A stretch of DNA of 64,000 nt from an uncultured bacterium (GCA_903857255.1 CAIODY010000091.1:11831-75830); one strand, 5' to 3'. Numbered from the stretch's first letter, positions 25,898 through 41,106 are shown. Notes: generated from the sequence alone by a model not told the origin. A program made the numbers and translations.

Positions 25898-25905
25898 TAC
25901 ATTTG
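25898..25905 (+). promoter_or_regulatory. candidate -7 promoter box (TACATTTG) for the ACIII/cox operon
   Basis: It matches TAnnTTTG, lies 48 nt upstream of the actA ATG, and is the only such box in the 300-nt gap before actA. Confidence 0.4.
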
Positions 25906-27146: not shown

Positions 27147-27260
27147 TTTGAAATTCAATTGAACGCAGATTATTATGATTATTAAGATTGGCACAGATTA
27201 AAAATCATAACTTATCATAAAAATCAGCGTCATCAGCGTTCTATAAAAAATAAAAAATCT

Positions 27261-27288
27261 TAGTACCTAATACATAGTACTTAATACA
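27261..27288 (+). repeat. tandem 14-mer TAGTACcTAATACA / TAGTACtTAATACA, ending 9 nt upstream of the actB ATG
   Basis: Read directly from the sequence. The two copies differ at one position. Related copies are at 32251-32277 and 36140-36168. Confidence 0.85.
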
Positions 27289-27297
27289 TTCAAAAAG

Positions 27298-30200
27298 ATG
27301 GAAAAAAAATATTGGAAAGGTTTTGAAGAATTAAATCAAACAGAAGAGCACAAAGCAACTGTTCAAAATGAATTTAAAGAAGAGTTGCCTTTGGTTGAAT
27401 TGTTTGATGAAAAATTCGGAACGCAAAGTACAGGTCGCCGCGATTTCTTAAAAGTAATGGGCTTCAGCGTTGCTGCTGCTACAATTGCTGCAAGTTGCGA
27501 AATCCCTGTTCGTAAAGCAATTCCTTATGTAATCAAACCTGAGGAAGTTGTTCCGGGTGTTGCCAACTGGTATGCTTCTTCATATACGGATGGTGGCGAA
27601 TATTGCTCAATCTTAGTAAAAAGCCGCGAAGGTCGTCCAATCAAAATTGAAGGAAATCATAACAGCACTATTACCAAAGGTGGCACCAGTGCTCGTGTTC
27701 AAGCCAGCGTATTAAGTTTGTATGATACTAATCGCAGCAAAAATCCTTCTATCAACGGTAGCGAAGCATCATGGGATAAAATTGATGCAGCTATTAAAGG
27801 CGAATTGGCAAAAGGCGGTGTAGCTATTGTAACTTCAACTATTCTTTCACCAACTACAAAATCTGTTATCGCAGATTTTATCAAAAAATATCCGGGCAGC
27901 AAACACGTAACTTATGATGCACAATCATACAGTGGTATGTTGAGTGCTAACGAAGCTTCTTTTGGAAAATATGCTTTACCATCTTACGATTTTTCAAAAG
28001 CGAATGTGATTGTAAGTTTTGGTGCTGATTTCTTAGGCACTTGGATTTCGCCTGTTGAATTCACTAAACAATATGTACAAGGCAGAAAATTAGTGGGCGA
28101 TAAATATGAAATGAGCAAACATTTCCAAGTTGAATCTCATTTGAGTTTAACTGGTGCTAATGCTGATGACAGATTGGTGATTCACCCATCTGAAGAAGGT
28201 TTGGCAGTGGCTGATTTATACAATGCTTTGAATGGCGGTGCTTGCAAAATGCCTGCTATGAAAAAAGTTGCTGACGCTTTAATGGCTGCAAAAGGCTCGT
28301 CATTGGTGGTTTCGGGTAGCAACGATGTGAATATTCAAATGGTTGTAAATGCTATCAACACGATGTTGGGCAACTATGGTTCTACATTAGATATTCATCA
28401 TCATGCCAATTATGCACAAGGAAATGATGCCGAAGTTGCAGCTTTAATTGAAGATTTAAACGCAGGAAAATATGGTACAGTGATGATTGCAGGTTGCAAC
28501 CCAGCTTACGATTATCCTACACAAAAATTTGCTGATGCGATTAAGAAAACTGCTTGCAGAATTTCTTTCAATGCATCAATGGATGAAACAACTAAGTTGT
28601 GTAATTATCACACACCTGATAATCATTATTTGGAAAGCTGGAATGATGCAGAGCCTAAAGTTGGTTTGTATAGTATCACACAGCCAGTTATTGCGCCATT
28701 ATTTAAAACTCGTCAATTCCAAGATAGCTTATTGAAATGGATTGACTGCCCAAGCGATTACTATTCTTATTTACAAGAAAACTGGACAAAAAATATTTTG
28801 AAAGGTGATGTAAATGATTGGGATGCTGCAGTAAAATTAGGTGTTCATGGTGGTGGCGAAGAAGTTGTTGCAGTTTCAAAAAAAGAAGATAAATCTGCAA
28901 AAGCTGAAGATAAAAAATCTGCACCAAAAGCAAGTGGCAATGTTGAATCTGCTTTAGCAGCTATCAGTAGCACTTACAATGGTAAAAAAGGAATGGCAGT
29001 AGTTTTATATGAAAAAGTAGCTTTAGGAAATGGCAAACATGCTAACAATCCTTGGTTGCAAGAAATGCCAGACCCAATCACTAAAACGACTTGGGACAAT
29101 TACGCGATGATTTCTTATGCTACTGCATTGAAATTGGGCTTAATGGATAATAACGGAAGTTTATTCAGCGACCACAAACCTATGTGGGATGCGAAAGAAA
29201 CTAAATTGGTGAATGTAAAAGTTGGAAACACAACTATCAAATTGCCTTCATTAGTTCAACCTGGTATGGCTGACGATACTATTGCAATTGCAGTAGGTTA
29301 TGGCAGAACAGAAGCTGGTAAAGTGGGCAATGGTGTTGGTTCAAATGCTTATCCATTCAAAACTTGGAACAATGGAACTTGGTTGGGAAGTGCGATGAAT
29401 GCTGATGTTACAGCTACTTCTGAAAAAACAACTTTGGCGCAAACTCAAACGCATCATAGCTACGAAGGTCGTAGAGTAATTAAAGAAACAACATTGGCAG
29501 CTCACAAAGCCAATCCTAAAGCTGTAAACGAAGACCGTGAAGATATTAAAGCAATGACCACAACGCTTTATGGAGATAATCCACGTTATGGTCAGCATGA
29601 TTATAGCCAAGGCTTGAAATGGCACATGGCTATTGATTTGAATAGTTGTACTGGTTGTGGAAACTGTACTATTGCTTGTCAATCTGAAAATAACGTTTCT
29701 GTTGTTGGTAAAGACCACGTGATTCGTTCACACGAAATGCATTGGATTCGTATTGATAGATATTATTCAATCGGAAATAATGAAGGCGGCTTCAATACAA
29801 TGGAAAAAAATATCAATGCCGAACCAAATTTCCAAAACGTTCAGGTTGTGTTCCAACCTTTGATGTGTCAGCATTGTGCGAATGCACCATGTGAAAATGT
29901 TTGCCCTGTAAATGCAACCAATCACAGCAGCGAAGGCTTGAATCAAATGGCTTACAACCGTTGTATCGGGACAAGATATTGCGCAAACAACTGTCCTTAT
30001 AAAGTTCGTCGTTTCAACTGGATGGACTGGAATGGTGCTGATAGCTTTGAAGACAATATGCAAGAACAAGTTGAAGTATTGGGTATGTCGGAAAATTTAA
30101 CACGTATGGTGTTGAATCCTGATGTAACAGTTCGTGCAAGGGGGGTTATCGAAAAATGTTCTTTCTGCGTTCAACGTATCCAAGAAGGAAAATTAGAAGC

Positions 30201-30495: not shown

Positions 30496-30658
30496 TTTGC
30501 AAATTTGATAATTAAATACAATGGCTTCATTCTGTAATAGAAGAAGTTAAAATTTGAAAATAGAAAAGCTAAAAAAATAAAAAAGTAGAGTTGAAAATAA
30601 AAGTTTAAAATCATTTTTAAATTTCTAAATTTTCAAATCTTCAAATTGAAAATAACTT

Positions 30659-32250: not shown

Positions 32251-32277
32251 TAGTACATAGTACTTAATACTAAATAC
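32251..32277 (+). repeat. TAGTACA / TAGTACTTAATAC / TAAATAC variant of the tandem motif upstream of actD
   Basis: Read directly from the sequence. It ends 10 nt before the ATG at 32288. Confidence 0.75.
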
Positions 32278-32287
32278 AAAAAGAAAA

Positions 32288-32833
32288 ATGGGAAGTAAAA
32301 AATTCTTACTGGGTATTTTCGGCGATGAAGATGTATTGCTCGAAGGTGTGCCTGCAATCAGAGAAAAGGGTATAAAAATTTACGACGTATTCACTCCGTT
32401 CCCAATTCACGGATTAGATACAGCAATGGGTTTACGTGAAAGTAAATTGCACATAGCAGGGTTCATTTATGGCATTACAGGAACATCAATTGCTTTGGGT
32501 TTCATGACTTGGGCTAATACTTTTGATTGGAGAGTAAATTTTGGTGGCAAACCTTTTTGGAGTTGGCCAGCCTACATTCCAATCACTTTTGAATTGACTG
32601 TATTGATGGCATCAGCTGGTATGGTGGCTACATTCATGTATTTGTGCCGCTTAGCGCCAGGTGTTCAAAAACACATTATGGATTTACGTCAGACTGATGA
32701 TAAAATGGTTGTTGCTATTGAAATTGACGAACATACTGATGTAAATAATTTAACCAGCATTTTAAAATCAAGCGGTGCTGAAGAAGTGAATACAAAGGTG
32801 ATTGATGATTGGTACAGATATAAAATTGCATAA
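32288..32833 (+). CDS. actD: Alternative Complex III subunit ActD (DUF3341-type)
   Basis: 181 aa. The N-terminus GIFGDEDVLLEGVPAIREKGIKIYDVFTPFPIHGLD is followed by two TM helices. Operon position fits ActD. Confidence 0.82.
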   Translation: MGSKKFLLGIFGDEDVLLEGVPAIREKGIKIYDVFTPFPIHGLDTAMGLRESKLHIAGFIYGITGTSIALGFMTWANTFDWRVNFGGKPFWSWPAYIPITFELTVLMASAGMVATFMYLCRLAPGVQKHIMDLRQTDDKMVVAIEIDEHTDVNNLTSILKSSGAEEVNTKVIDDWYRYKIA

Positions 32834-33649: not shown

Positions 33650-33755
33650 TATTATGAATTAGGTATCAAGTATTATGATGTTCTTCTTAATTCCTAATAC
33701 TTAATTCTTAATTCAGCAATCAATAAATCTAAAATCATTAAATAGAAAATATTAA

Positions 33756-34979: not shown

Positions 34980-35088
34980 GCCAAGTATAATGAATAGTGA
35001 ATATTGAGCATTAAGACAAATACAAAAAGACTTTTAGCCATTAGGGCAGAAAATAAAACTAATAACATAAAATAATTAACGAAAAATA

Positions 35089-36139: not shown

Positions 36140-36168
36140 TAGTACCTAATACATTAGTACTTAATTCA
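36140..36168 (+). repeat. tandem TAGTACCTAATACA-t-TAGTACTTAATTCA upstream of ctaD
   Basis: Read directly from the sequence. It ends 12 nt before the ATG at 36181. The upstream context AAAAAATAAA(T)AAAAATC is shared with the actB copy. Confidence 0.85.
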
Positions 36169-36180
36169 AAAAGAAAATAA

Positions 36181-38022
36181 ATGAGTTCAACAGCAACACA
36201 TCACGTATCAGAAGAAGCCATCTATCATAAGGCTGAGTGGCATACACATCATCACCATGAACACAATGGTCATGACCATCAGGATACTTTTTTCAGCAAA
36301 TACGTCTTTTCGCAAGACCATAAAATGATTGCCAAACAGTTCTTGGTAACTGGTATTTTTTGGGCAATTATCGGCGGATTGATGAGTGCTTTATTTCGCA
36401 TTCAATTAGGTTATCCTGATGAACATTTTGGATTTTTGAGTTCATTATTAGGTCATTGGGCACCAGGTGGAAAAATTGACCCTCAATACTATTTAGCATT
36501 AGTAACTATGCATGGTACTATCATGGTATTCTTTGTATTGACTGGTGGATTAAGCGGAACGTTCTCTAACTTTTTGATTCCATTGCAAGTAGGCGCAAGA
36601 GATATGGCATCACCAGCTTTGAATATGCTAAGTTATTGGATGTTCGTGTTATCAAGCGTTGTGATGTTCTCTTCTTATTTCGTTTCATCTGGTCCTGCAT
36701 CAGCTGGTTGGACAGTTTATCCGCCATTGAGTGCTTTGCCTGAAGCAGTAAAAGGTTCAGGAACTGGTCAGGGTTTATGGTTAATCAGTATTGCATTATT
36801 CATTGTATCAGCATTATTGGGTGGTTTGAACTATGTGGCTACCATTTTAAATATGCGTACAAAAGGAATGACGATGACTCGTTTGCCTTTAACCATCTGG
36901 TCATTTTTATTAACTGCTATTTTAGGTATATTGTCTTTCCCGGTATTGTTGAGTGCAGCGTTGTTATTAATTTTCGATAGAAGCTTAGGCACTTCATTTT
37001 ATTTAAATGAAATTTATATCAACGGTCATGCAATGGTTGAACAAACTGGTGGTTCATCTATTTTATTCCAACACTTATTCTGGTTCTTAGGTCATCCTGA
37101 AGTTTACATCGTTATTCTTCCAGCGATGGGTTTAGTATCTGAAGTATTAGCTGTTAGTGCTCGTAAGCCTATCTTTGGTTACAAAGCCATGATTGGTTCT
37201 ATGTTGGCAATTGGTGGTTTATCATTCATCGTTTGGGCGCATCACATGTTCGTATCAGGTATGAATCCTTTTGTAGGTTCTATCTTCGTGGTATTAACGT
37301 TGATTATCGCCGTACCATCTGCTGTAAAAGTATTCAACTGGATTGCAACTATCTGGAGAGGTAGTATCCGTTTCACTCCGCAATCATTATTTGCTATTGG
37401 TTTTGTAAGCTTATTCATCAGCGGTGGTTTGACAGGATTGTTCTTAGGAAACTCAACAGTTGATATTGAATTGACTAAAACTTATTTCGTGGTAGCTCAC
37501 TTCCATATTGTAATGGGTGTTGCGGCGTTCTTCGGTTTGTTTGCTGGTGTTTATCACTGGTATCCAAAAATGTTTGGTCGCTACATGAATAACACTTTGG
37601 GTTACATTCACTTCTTTGTAACCTTCATTGGTAGCTATTTGATTTTCTGGCCTATGCACTATCAGGGAATGGCTGGTTTACCTCGTTGGTATTATACACA
37701 CAGCAGCTACGAAACATTCGGTCACATGGGCGAATTGAGCAAATTCATTTCTACTGTTGCTGTTATCGTTTTCCTCATGCAGGTGTTCTTTATTATCAAC
37801 TTCTTCTACAGCATGTATAAAGGAAGAAAAGTAACTGAACAAAATCCATGGGAAGCTACTACATTGGAATGGACTACACCGATTCAAGCACCACATGGCA
37901 ACTGGGAAGGTGATATTCCTGAAGTTTACCGTTGGCCTTATGATTACAGTAAAGAAAACGGAGAAGGATTTATTACGCAGGATACACCTATGAAACCAGG
38001 TGAACAACAATTGCACCATTAA
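36181..38022 (+). CDS. ctaD: cytochrome c oxidase subunit I
   Basis: 613 aa with classic heme-copper oxidase motifs (TMHGTIMVFF, WFLGHPEVYIVILPAMG, VWAHHMFVSGM, HFHIVMG). Confidence 0.95.
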   Translation: MSSTATHHVSEEAIYHKAEWHTHHHHEHNGHDHQDTFFSKYVFSQDHKMIAKQFLVTGIFWAIIGGLMSALFRIQLGYPDEHFGFLSSLLGHWAPGGKIDPQYYLALVTMHGTIMVFFVLTGGLSGTFSNFLIPLQVGARDMASPALNMLSYWMFVLSSVVMFSSYFVSSGPASAGWTVYPPLSALPEAVKGSGTGQGLWLISIALFIVSALLGGLNYVATILNMRTKGMTMTRLPLTIWSFLLTAILGILSFPVLLSAALLLIFDRSLGTSFYLNEIYINGHAMVEQTGGSSILFQHLFWFLGHPEVYIVILPAMGLVSEVLAVSARKPIFGYKAMIGSMLAIGGLSFIVWAHHMFVSGMNPFVGSIFVVLTLIIAVPSAVKVFNWIATIWRGSIRFTPQSLFAIGFVSLFISGGLTGLFLGNSTVDIELTKTYFVVAHFHIVMGVAAFFGLFAGVYHWYPKMFGRYMNNTLGYIHFFVTFIGSYLIFWPMHYQGMAGLPRWYYTHSSYETFGHMGELSKFISTVAVIVFLMQVFFIINFFYSMYKGRKVTEQNPWEATTLEWTTPIQAPHGNWEGDIPEVYRWPYDYSKENGEGFITQDTPMKPGEQQLHH

Positions 38023-38043: not shown

Positions 38044-38930
38044 TTGACAAAAGCTATTTCCATATCGAACCCTATCATCAGCAAAATCTATGATTATGGT
38101 GTGTTGGCTAAATTCAAGCTCACCTCCTTCATCATCATGAGTGCGGCGGCGGGCTATGGAATTGCTTTTCAGGGGTCATTAAATACATTTAAGTTCTTTA
38201 GTTTATTAGTAGGCGGATTTTTAATTACAGCTTCATCTAATGCCATCAATCAGATTCTGGAAAGAAATTTTGATGTATTGATGGACAGAACAGCTAACCG
38301 ACCATTGGCATCAGAACGTATGAGTTTGATGGAAGCCATGGTAGCAGCAGGTTTTGCAGGCGTTGGAGGGGTAATGGTATTGTGGTTTTATTGCAATAAC
38401 ATTGCAGGTATATTAGGCGCACTGGCTTTATTGAGCTATGCATTTATATATACGCCAATGAAACGGATTTCTCCCATTTCAGTATGGGTAGGAGCTATAC
38501 CAGGTGCCTTGCCACCAATGATAGGCGTAGTTGCAGCAACTGGCAGATTAGATGCATTGGCCTGGGTAATGTTTGGCATTCAGTTCTTATGGCAGTTTCC
38601 ACACTATTGGGCTATTGCCTGGTGATTGACGAAGATTATCAGAAAGCAGGTTATAAAATGTTGCCGTCAAAAGGCGGAAAAGACAGAATCACTGCATCAT
38701 TCAGTTTGTTATATGCAGCCATGTTGATTCCGATGGGAATTATCCCGACTTATTTTGGCTGGTGCAATAATTTAACTTTGGTCATTATGGTGCTTTGCGG
38801 ATTAATGATGTTGGTGCAGGCAATCGTTCTTTTTATAAAATTAGATAACAAGGCAGCAAGAGGATTAATGTTTGGTTCATTTGTTTATTTACCAATTGTT
38901 TTGCTGGCTTTAATCATAGGAAAAATATAA
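38044..38930 (+). pseudogene. cyoE: heme O synthase (protoheme IX farnesyltransferase) interrupted by a single-nucleotide frameshift
   Basis: ORF 38044..38625 ends ...FLWQFPHYWAIAW-TGA. ORF 38484..38930, in another frame, continues ...LVIDEDYQKAGYKMLPSKGG... to a normal CyoE/CtaB C-terminus. Adding one G to the GG at 38621-38622 restores AIAWVIDEDYQKAGYKMLP and a protein of about 295 aa. Confidence 0.85.
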
Positions 38931-40484: not shown

Positions 40485-40511
40485 TAATTCATAATTCATA
40501 ACTCAATTAAT

Positions 40512-40880
40512 ATGTCAGAAGAAGTACACGAACACGAAGCATCAAGCCCAAAAACAATTTGGAGAACTTTCTGGATTTTATTGGCAATTACTATTGGTGA
40601 AATTTTGTTTGCAGTTTTAGTTGCACCACACATGGGCGGCAAACTAATCCCTAACTTATTATATGCTGTATTGTCTATCATGAAAGCAGGCTATATCATT
40701 TCTGAATTTATGCACATGAAATACGAAGCCAAAAACTTGATTCGTACAGTAGGTTTACCAACCTTGCTTTTGATTTGGTTAATCACCGCTTTAGCCATGG
40801 AAGGCACCAGTTGGAAACACATGATGAACAAACCCATGCCCGAAGGTGCTGAAATGGAACATGCGGCTGCCAGCAAATAA
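40512..40880 (+). CDS. prokaryotic cytochrome c oxidase subunit IV family protein
   Basis: 122 aa and three TM helices (TFWILLAITIGEILFAVLVA...). It is the last gene before the operon terminator. Confidence 0.72.
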   Translation: MSEEVHEHEASSPKTIWRTFWILLAITIGEILFAVLVAPHMGGKLIPNLLYAVLSIMKAGYIISEFMHMKYEAKNLIRTVGLPTLLLIWLITALAMEGTSWKHMMNKPMPEGAEMEHAAASK

Positions 40881-40900
40881 ACGATGCTGCTAAAAATATT

Positions 40901-40936
40901 AAAAGCCTCTTTACCATAGTGTAGAGAGGCTTTTTT
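40901..40936 (+). terminator. intrinsic terminator closing the ACIII/cox cluster
   Basis: A 10-bp stem, gcctctttac (40905-14) pairing with gtagagaggc (40921-30) with one G-U pair, has a 6-nt loop and is followed by TTTTTT. Confidence 0.75.
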
Positions 40937-41106
40937 ATTGCCTTGTTTCAATGGCTGTATAATCAAGATGGGTGGATAATTGCTGAACTGCTGTGATGCT
41001 TTGAGATGAGCGGTATTGCTTTTTTATAAAAAATGATGAAAACTTTTTCGATTTCATTTAATATATTCGCAACCTATTTTTTTAATCACCTAATTATCCC
41101 AATTTT

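Follow-up and report, generated by a model that had tools for sequence, protein, structure and literature searches.

Results

Heptamer arrays in the act-cta cluster

The window, i.e. the whole stretch of 64,000 nt analysed here, belongs to an uncultured freshwater Chitinophagales MAG (G000), for which the nearest record is 'Chitinophagales bacterium Jr-16oct17-254' (G001), and carries a gene cluster encoding alternative complex III plus an aa3 oxidase. The gene identities proposed in the initial annotation hold, with ActB, ActC, CoxB and CtaD recognised by NCBIfam and ActD and COX4_pro by Pfam. The same unusual sequence had been described there in front of the start codons of actB, actD and ctaD, and direct reading of the sequence finds it at all three positions (Table 1). 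Its description as a tandem 14-mer was right as to the tandem repetition and wrong as to the period, which is 7: the arrays are built from a heptamer, (TARTWCN)x3-4, with the variants TAGTACN, TAATACN and TAATTCN, in which G and A variants alternate. Read directly, the forward arrays contain TAG or TAA stop codons in all three frames and no AUG, and with 0-2 G per array they match S1-type A/U(C)-rich tracts in composition. The linkers that follow the arrays of actB, actD and ctaD (TTCAAAAAG, AAAAGAAAA and AAAAGAAAATAA, respectively) place A at -3 and -6. For actF, a looser version of the motif had been reported; an array is present there, but the element is actually an inverted repeat, in which 33655-33675 faces 33695-33715 with 19 of 21 positions paired.

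Table 1. Repeat features of the act-cta cluster, with positions counted from the first letter of the window.
Feature	Position	Strand	Remarks
Separate repeat module ATCAGCGTCATCAGCGTTCTAT	27223-27244	+	11 genome copies
actB leader block: A-rich AAAAAATAAAAAATCT, array, then linker TTCAAAAAG	27243-27297	+	conserved; ATG at 27298
actB heptamer array TAGTACC TAATACA TAGTACT TAATACA	27261-27288	+	4 units
actD heptamer array TAGTACA TAGTACT TAATACT AAATACA	32251-32278	+	this genome only; 9-nt linker AAAAGAAAA to ATG at 32288
G-type left arm TGAATTAGGTATCAAGTATTA	33655-33675	+	6 nt past actE stop codon
C-type array before actF, TAATTCC TAATACT TAATTCT TAATTCA	33688-33715	+	right hairpin arm
Stop-proximal G-type heptamer array ATAATGAATAGTGAATATTGA	34987-35007	+	7 nt past actF stop codon; example of the polarity rule
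ctaD heptamer array TAGTACC TAATACA (T) TAGTACT TAATTCA	36140-36168	+	shared with G001; 12-nt linker AAAAGAAAATAA to ATG at 36181
coxIV array TAATTCA TAATTCA TAACTCA	40485-40505	+	6 nt before ATG at 40512

At actB, the heptamer array sits between the start codon and the separate ATCAGCGTCATCAGCGTTCTAT module, copies of which usually have an A-rich run and an ATG within 10-30 nt downstream. The stretch 27200-27250 reaches about ten times the depth of its flanks in lake metagenome contigs and is multi-copy there. The locus sequence was found in DNA metagenome runs only, with no RNA sequencing run holding it, and the matching DNA metagenome contigs contained no indel variants of the array. Elsewhere in the cluster, a 1-nt frameshift at 38621-38625 splits the heme O synthase gene cyoE. 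It is specific to this assembly and, since G001 has one extra G and an intact cyoE frame, was either introduced by sequencing or assembly or arose as a very recent lesion.

Frequency, placement and polarity of the arrays

Allowing at most two mismatches, TAGTACYTAATAC has 13 matches in the window compared to 1.83 expected, a number that none of 100 shuffles reached. The genome-wide search that had been suggested for the motif returned four exact copies of the 13-mer TAGTACYTAATAC in 2.97 Mb, all of them within the act-cta cluster, on the sense (+) strand and before ATGs. Window excess over shuffles and genome-wide exact count together rule out a chance occurrence of the motif.

If at least two tandem TARTWCN units are required, the genome holds 36 sites, of which 22 are intergenic (the intergenic share of the genome amounts to about 12% according to a crude ORF call) and 16 are co-oriented with the downstream gene. 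The family is found almost exclusively in oxidative-phosphorylation operons of this genome. In seven genes, namely actB, actD, ctaD, coxIV (COX4_pro, 40512), atpH, atpA and rplQ, the array ends 7-16 nt before the ATG, while the actF array ends 40 nt before its ATG. Searching the region from -60 to -1 for any array of period 7 or 14, we obtained 19 of 2383 genes compared to 1-4 in mononucleotide shuffles and 2 in coding windows; the set includes actB, actD, coxIV, atpF, atpH, atpA and pntB as well as rpsK, rplQ, obg, pfkA, gcvH, phoU and ftsW. The same periodicity was present in 31 of 492 leaders from 80 Chitinophagales act-cta loci and in 0 of 489 coding windows, with leader units that are quite different from TARTWCN and among which TTTTGAA is common.

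The arrays are furthermore polar with respect to translation signals. Among 987 spacers between co-directional genes, start-proximal arrays have more C than G in seven of eight cases, most of them without any G, while arrays at most 10 nt past the upstream stop codon have more G than C in all five cases (Fisher p ~0.005 for start- versus stop-proximal polarity). G-type arrays, which are the complement of the G-poor start-proximal ones, were found 0-9 nt past stop codons. This polarity relative to start and stop codons fits selection on the mRNA strand.

Heptamer arrays were additionally observed in other contexts. In reverse orientation, (GAATTAN)n arrays are translated in frame as ...ELRIRNYELGI... 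inside proteins: in four T9SS C-terminal sorting domains they directly follow the YPNP motif (C25:44265, C37:9298, C130:4642 and C134:24530), in an IspG-like enzyme they form an insert (C123:28815), and a further site lies at C34:21864. Longer (CTTAATA)n arrays of 7-8 units are located at or near contig ends (C6:235-282 and C81:1-55), and since the same unique sequence follows both, the assembly probably broke at these repeats.

Turnover and conservation among relatives

At actB, the array is kept in five species of the genus: four units are present in this genome, three each in G001 and G005, two degenerate ones in G004, and four in another order (AGTACTA AGTACTC AATACTA AATACTA) in the species of locus L079. 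A small hairpin module replaces the array in G006, and other genera have none. The ctaD array of G001 differs from that of G000 by one substitution and one 1-nt deletion, and G002 carries two units, TAATTCA TAATACA. The actD array occurs in G000 only: the 99%-identical relative G001 has a spacer of 37 nt compared to 210 nt, and G004 and G005 carry ATCATAA x4 at the array position. AATAAC-type heptamers precede actD and actF in G003, actE in G002 and rplQ in G003 and G005, and rplQ of G002 and G004 has TAATTCA x3-4. The dominant heptamer family accordingly differs among species, with TAATWCNTAATWC counted 49 times in G000, 30 times in G001 and 11 times in G003, and AATAACN(1-2)AATAAC 20, 24 and 125 times, respectively. 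The array is also dispensable, being absent at actD in G001 and G006, at actB in G006 and other genera, and from most cistrons of the same operon. The conserved signal that had been assumed from this genome is contradicted by the single-genome actD copy, the missing actB copies and the use of different heptamers by congeners. These different heptamers at the same site argue against a sequence-specific reader.

Conservation is nevertheless partial rather than absent. Alignable spacers of G000 and G001 are identical at 321 of 326 positions, compared to 74-89% (about 83%) at third codon positions, and the actA-actB spacer differs between the two by two indels only, corresponding to a 9-nt unit of another repeat and one 7-nt array unit. 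After right-alignment, the actB leaders of G001 and G005 are 97% identical from -30 to -1, compared to 53% in the coding region from +31 to +60, and in the comparison of G000 with G005 the identity at third positions amounts to 62% over the first 600 nt of actB. These identities suggest purifying selection on the leader; the actB array is retained in several species with near-saturated synonymous sites. The conserved block of 48 nt may instead reflect recent transfer, copying or gene conversion, which we considered because the neighbouring IVP cassette (see below) is about 95% identical across species with far more diverged flanks.

Two further rearrangements were noted. In the actC leader (window 30580-30658 compared), a palindrome AAATTAGCACATTAGCA-n4-AGCTAATTAGCAAATTATAAAAnTT is kept in G001-G006 and in G008 from another genus, and is replaced by an unrelated TTTAAATTTCTAAATTTTCAAATC repeat in this genome. 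Only here does atpA directly follow atpH with a heptamer-array leader (C134:2062-2127 compared to G001-G005); in the five relatives it resides elsewhere, for example about 6 kb from atpH in G001 and 33 kb from the atp cassette in G004, and is preceded by a promoter-like TAnnTTTG box.

RNA structure, promoter and rRNA pairing

The AGUAC/GUACU stem of 5 bp that had been proposed to form between repeats is indeed predicted, yet it is weak (ctaD leader, -3.7 kcal/mol, z = -0.95). Folding z-scores of the spacers amount to -2.0 for actB, -0.1 for actD and -0.95 for ctaD, the actB value stemming from a different upstream hairpin. The arrays of these three genes have no complementary partner arm, so that with the GUAC stem as the only predicted pairing a structured RNA element was rejected for them. 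The actF spacer folds better than shuffles (z = -2.3), and its hairpin holds no ORF. Predicted accessibility of the arrays, taken as unpaired probability, is unremarkable with percentiles of 0.19-0.97 and a median near 0.5, and does not bear out an exceptionally unstructured landing pad; the region from -20 to +20 is predicted to be moderately open (percentiles 0.64-0.99).

Sigma-A promoters of Bacteroidota are marked by a -7 box TAnnTTTG with TTTG further upstream. This -7 box was found at no array, which speaks against an internal promoter there; the sole intergenic copy in the cluster lies at 25898, upstream of actA. Pairing of the Shine-Dalgarno or epsilon type with the 16S rRNA of the same genome was rejected, since the best duplexes are no better than those of shuffles, 0.70-0.79 of which reach the observed energy. 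The 5' region of this 16S rRNA (C30:24247-25773), GGCTTAATACATGCAAG, has the 10-mer CTTAATACAT in common with the actB leader, which constitutes identity, not complementarity, and is probably due to chance; its 3' end reads GGAATACCTCCTTT. A scan with the covariance models of Rfam 15 gave no match on the arrays and only a weak one to sau-19, at the terminator 40887-40939, leaving no known RNA family as a candidate. TRAP (TrpBP, PF02081) and CsrA (PF02599) were dismissed as partners, as the genes for both are absent from the genome.

Four-helix-bundle cassettes

The heptamer unit recurs outside the window, on contig C134, where a 117-aa gene between the atpF stop and the atpH start encodes a four-helix-bundle protein (23S_rRNA_IVP, PF05635, E = 4e-44). 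This atp cassette (C134:1074-1493) consists of the gene flanked by inverted heptamer arrays, with TGAATTAAGAACTAAGTATTAGGTATTA as the left arm and TAATACCTAATACTTAATTCTTAATACA (C134:1466-1493), reading TAATACC TAATACT TAATTCT TAATACA, as the right arm, which ends 10 nt before the atpH ATG and so displays the same unit and spacing as the act-cta arrays. The genome has six IVP genes, each situated between co-directional genes, and the same is true of nearly all of the 40 examined in the congeners G001-G005. Each cassette has copy-specific inverted short-repeat arms, of which, on the mRNA strand, the left one is G-rich and the right one is C-rich and abuts the next start codon; in G003, the right arm of the cassette before atpC (L057) contains TAAGTAC TTAGTAC.

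The six IVP genes of the genome all lie outside the act-cta cluster, and none was found in the cluster of the window or in 20 + 80 related loci. With no IVP gene in about 100 act-cta clusters, there is no direct sign that the actB, actD and ctaD arrays are leftovers of a cassette, and we regard such an origin as possible yet unsupported.

Including synonymous sites, the DNA of the atp cassette is about 95% identical among G000, G001 (L033) and G004 (L039), while the flanking atpH is much more diverged, which suggests, as judged from this comparison, recent movement of the cassette between species. Across the three genomes the left arm is variable and the right arm invariant, and the G004 cassette has an extra C-type arm between left arm and gene. 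We dropped the invariance of the right arm as a sign of constraint, since the whole cassette is near-identical and may have moved recently.

As a separate observation, three paralogous TGTACAAAGTATTAGGTATTAAGTACA copies, each followed by (ATG)AAAATACAAAATCCCGAAGC, are located at C134:3717-3730, C134:7379-7392 and C34:11338-11351. Every copy contains a G-type array of the TAATAC family in a small GTAC-closed hairpin and looks like an IVP cassette at its left end, but none of the three was seen to have an IVP ORF.

Discussion

In this study, we followed up a repeated leader sequence in a respiratory gene cluster by genome-wide counting, comparison with relatives and structure prediction. The element is genuine and not a product of chance, and at the level of the mRNA it is either active or tolerated. 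The sequences show how the arrays are built, where and in which direction they lie, their polarity, distribution and turnover, and that they are partly conserved. The initial annotation had seen in them a shared translation-initiation or regulator-binding signal that coordinates the large catalytic subunits in an organism without Shine-Dalgarno pairing. The lineage indeed does not use such pairing, and a shared signal is in keeping with the leader position, the sense orientation, the distance of 7-16 nt to the start codon and the enrichment over shuffles and coding windows, although the analysis identified no regulator. The restriction to large catalytic subunits does not stand, as the genes for ActD, CoxIV, AtpH and L17 have the array and actC, ctaC and ctaE lack it, and an ancient conserved signal of catalytic subunits is ruled out by comparison with act-cta clusters from 10 close relatives and about 90 more distant ones. 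From what the compared sequences tell, the element belongs to a species-specific general repeat system and does not serve the large catalytic subunits as a switch of their own.

A class of heptamer repeats before start codons has already been described. MacGregor reported TAACTGA direct repeats in marine Beggiatoaceae, cyanobacteria and five Bacteroidetes in 2015, with unknown function and with translational control via S1, Csp or CsrA as a proposal (PMC4679880). Both TAACTGA and TARTWCN repeats comprise tandem 7-nt units with related heptamers interspersed (2-6 copies in the case of TAACTGA), are mostly intergenic and forward-oriented, the distance from TAACTGA repeats to the start codon being between a few and about 40 nt, and occur inside ribosomal-protein operons with strain-specific distribution. 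They likewise have reverse copies after stop codons and inside ORFs, and stops in all three frames. In contrast to that system, the unit here is TARTWCN and the host a Chitinophagales MAG, several unit families exist side by side, so that a given site may hold one family in one species and another in a congener, and units are common to the arms of four-helix-bundle cassettes, whereas PMC4679880 mentions neither four-helix-bundle genes nor intervening sequences. As the anatomy is the same and the unit different, we place the element in the TAACTGA-type class of heptamer repeats, within which TARTWCN is a different sequence family.

An older parallel is given by the STRR (short tandemly repeated repetitive) heptanucleotide sequences of heterocystous cyanobacteria, reportedly described by Mazel et al. 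in 1990. These share with the present arrays the organisation as tandem heptamer families, the intergenic location, the lineage-specific distribution and the unknown function, and differ in phylum and unit sequences; to our knowledge, they are not described as sitting at a set distance from start codons.

We tentatively favour a reading in which the arrays represent a fast-turnover heptamer module that would make up the distal portion of the region where translation of internal cistrons starts without a Shine-Dalgarno sequence, an initiation role that we infer and hold to be about as open to doubt as to belief, leaning slightly to doubt. In Bacteroidota, an A-rich 'Kozak-like' stretch takes the place of the Shine-Dalgarno sequence. 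Among the heptamer direct repeats that fill intercistronic spacers in this lineage, TARTWCN arrays would be a local family, presumably transcribed within a long actA-to-coxIV mRNA and situated at roughly -40 to -10 of internal cistrons, just 5' of the A-rich stretch. Being G-poor, free of AUG and, supposedly, largely single-stranded, the array would serve as a ribosome loading platform on the internal cistron, possibly via bS1 or another single-strand RNA-binding protein, while stop codons in all frames would end stray upstream translation. Arrays could arise and turn over by repeat dynamics, in which units are added or lost, sequence is copied from one spacer to another and the dominant family of the species takes the place of others, and the same repeat system may supply the inverted arms of the 23S_rRNA_IVP cassettes.

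Such a platform would resemble the G-poor, A/U-rich enhancers bound by S1, as known from AU-rich E. coli leaders and the TMV omega leader, in that a G-poor repeat leader sits just 5' of the start region on an mRNA without Shine-Dalgarno pairing. The likeness is one of sequence; the present arrays differ in that their GUAC units are able to pair with one another and that they are predicted to be of average accessibility. In Flavobacterium johnsoniae, A at -3 and -6 promotes initiation and the neighbourhood of start codons is depleted in AUG, while bS1 has been proposed to bind around -12 to -15 (PMC6847099); the initiation region there is comparable to the linkers described here with respect to A at -3 and -6. 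UAG triplets repeated close to a start codon are also reminiscent of the (G/U)AG leaders bound by Bacillus TRAP, in which, by contrast, triplets are spaced by 2-3 nt instead of 7 or 14 nt and number 9-11 instead of 2-4 copies, while this genome has no TrpBP gene.

The main rival to a function in initiation regards the arrays as filler, selfish or neutral and with no function of its own, generated by a repeat-producing or mobile process (slippage, copying between spacers, decay of hairpin or cassette arms) and kept where, and in the orientation in which, it is harmless, namely free of G and AUG next to start codons. We consider this possible, if rather unlikely. Presence or absence of arrays varies among very close relatives, whole spacers are replaced, and the abundance of heptamer families is species-specific, all of which filler would explain, as it would the long arrays at contig ends and the in-frame arrays tolerated inside proteins. 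A continuum moreover runs from the full IVP cassette via the ORF-less hairpin in the actF spacer to the solo arm. Filler accounts less readily for shared spacers and an actB leader that are conserved well above synonymous sites, or for tight placement at 7-16 nt recurring in seven genes, and the lack of any IVP gene in about 100 act-cta clusters deprives it of a direct sign of cassette remnants.

The relation to the cassettes allows for a more specific alternative. ORF-bearing 23S rRNA intervening sequences (S23p/IVP) have been described in Coxiella burnetii (PMC4990558). Among the cassettes of the present lineage, the right arm between atpF and atpH shares array unit and start-codon distance with the act-cta arrays and the actF spacer constitutes an ORF-less two-arm hairpin, whereas no PF05635 ORF lies next to the actB, actD and ctaD arrays, which also lack a complementary arm. 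The IVP/Avd-like protein of the atpF-atpH cassette could recognise TAATWCN arrays and in this way couple alternative complex III, cytochrome oxidase, ATP synthase and L17, which we regard as improbable; that the arrays are mRNA or DNA sites for this protein and a domesticated selfish cassette runs a post-transcriptional regulon appears a shade less probable again. The equal distance of 10 nt between the cassette arm and the next ATG speaks for recognition, as does the fact that seven of the eight TARTWCN-led genes (actF counted) are oxidative-phosphorylation genes, although arrays within one operon are not independent and effectively reduce to three loci. Heptamer families tend to be more numerous in genomes that have a cassette with matching arms, and AATAAC, the dominant solo family of G003 (actD, actF and rplQ), matches the arms of the resident cassette L058. 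Copying of arrays from cassette arms would, however, yield the same correlation. GTGAATG/CATTCAC, the top solo family of G000, has no cassette with matching arms, and G005 is rich in AATAAC arrays with no such cassette among its six (in a genome that is 87% complete); furthermore, no nucleic-acid specificity is known for the protein family. If the proposal were true, a single regulon would tie together alternative complex III, cytochrome c oxidase, ATP synthase and an operon for ribosomal proteins, and the heptamer 'code' would differ from species to species in accordance with the cassettes residing there.

A role of the arrays in processing or stability of the transcript is very improbable. 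Cleavage of an RNase E/G or RNase Y type in the A/U-rich, supposedly single-stranded array, or by RNase III in a duplex where a complementary arm exists, would split the 15-kb transcript into segments of differing half-lives, in line with unusually long spacers that contain small hairpins followed by A-runs, and with the long duplexes of actF spacer and cassette arms, which are like RNase III-processed 23S rRNA intervening sequences (PMC4990558). Yet the actB, actD and ctaD arrays have no complementary partner, and a cleavage site would not need tight spacing to the ATG. Least probable of all is a DNA-level element, i.e. an internal promoter or the operator of a transcription factor binding direct repeats, since, despite the AT-rich array and direct repeats being a common operator design, no array has a -7 box, sites repeated every 7 bp do not face the same side of the helix, unit number (2-4) and unit sequence vary between species, and the strict strand polarity relative to translation signals points to RNA.

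Conclusions

How ribosomes of Bacteroidota find internal cistrons without Shine-Dalgarno pairing is still unclear, and the locus described herein joins this question to the heptamer repeats before start codons, which have been known since 2015 (heptamer STRR reportedly since 1990) without explanation. It offers a natural series, with three near-identical arrays in one respiratory operon and 0, 2, 3 or 4 units in sister species, and the unit shared with a cassette arm provides a concrete candidate for a partner protein. Should the arrays be inert, the locus would still show the rapid rebuilding of operon spacers by repeat modules.
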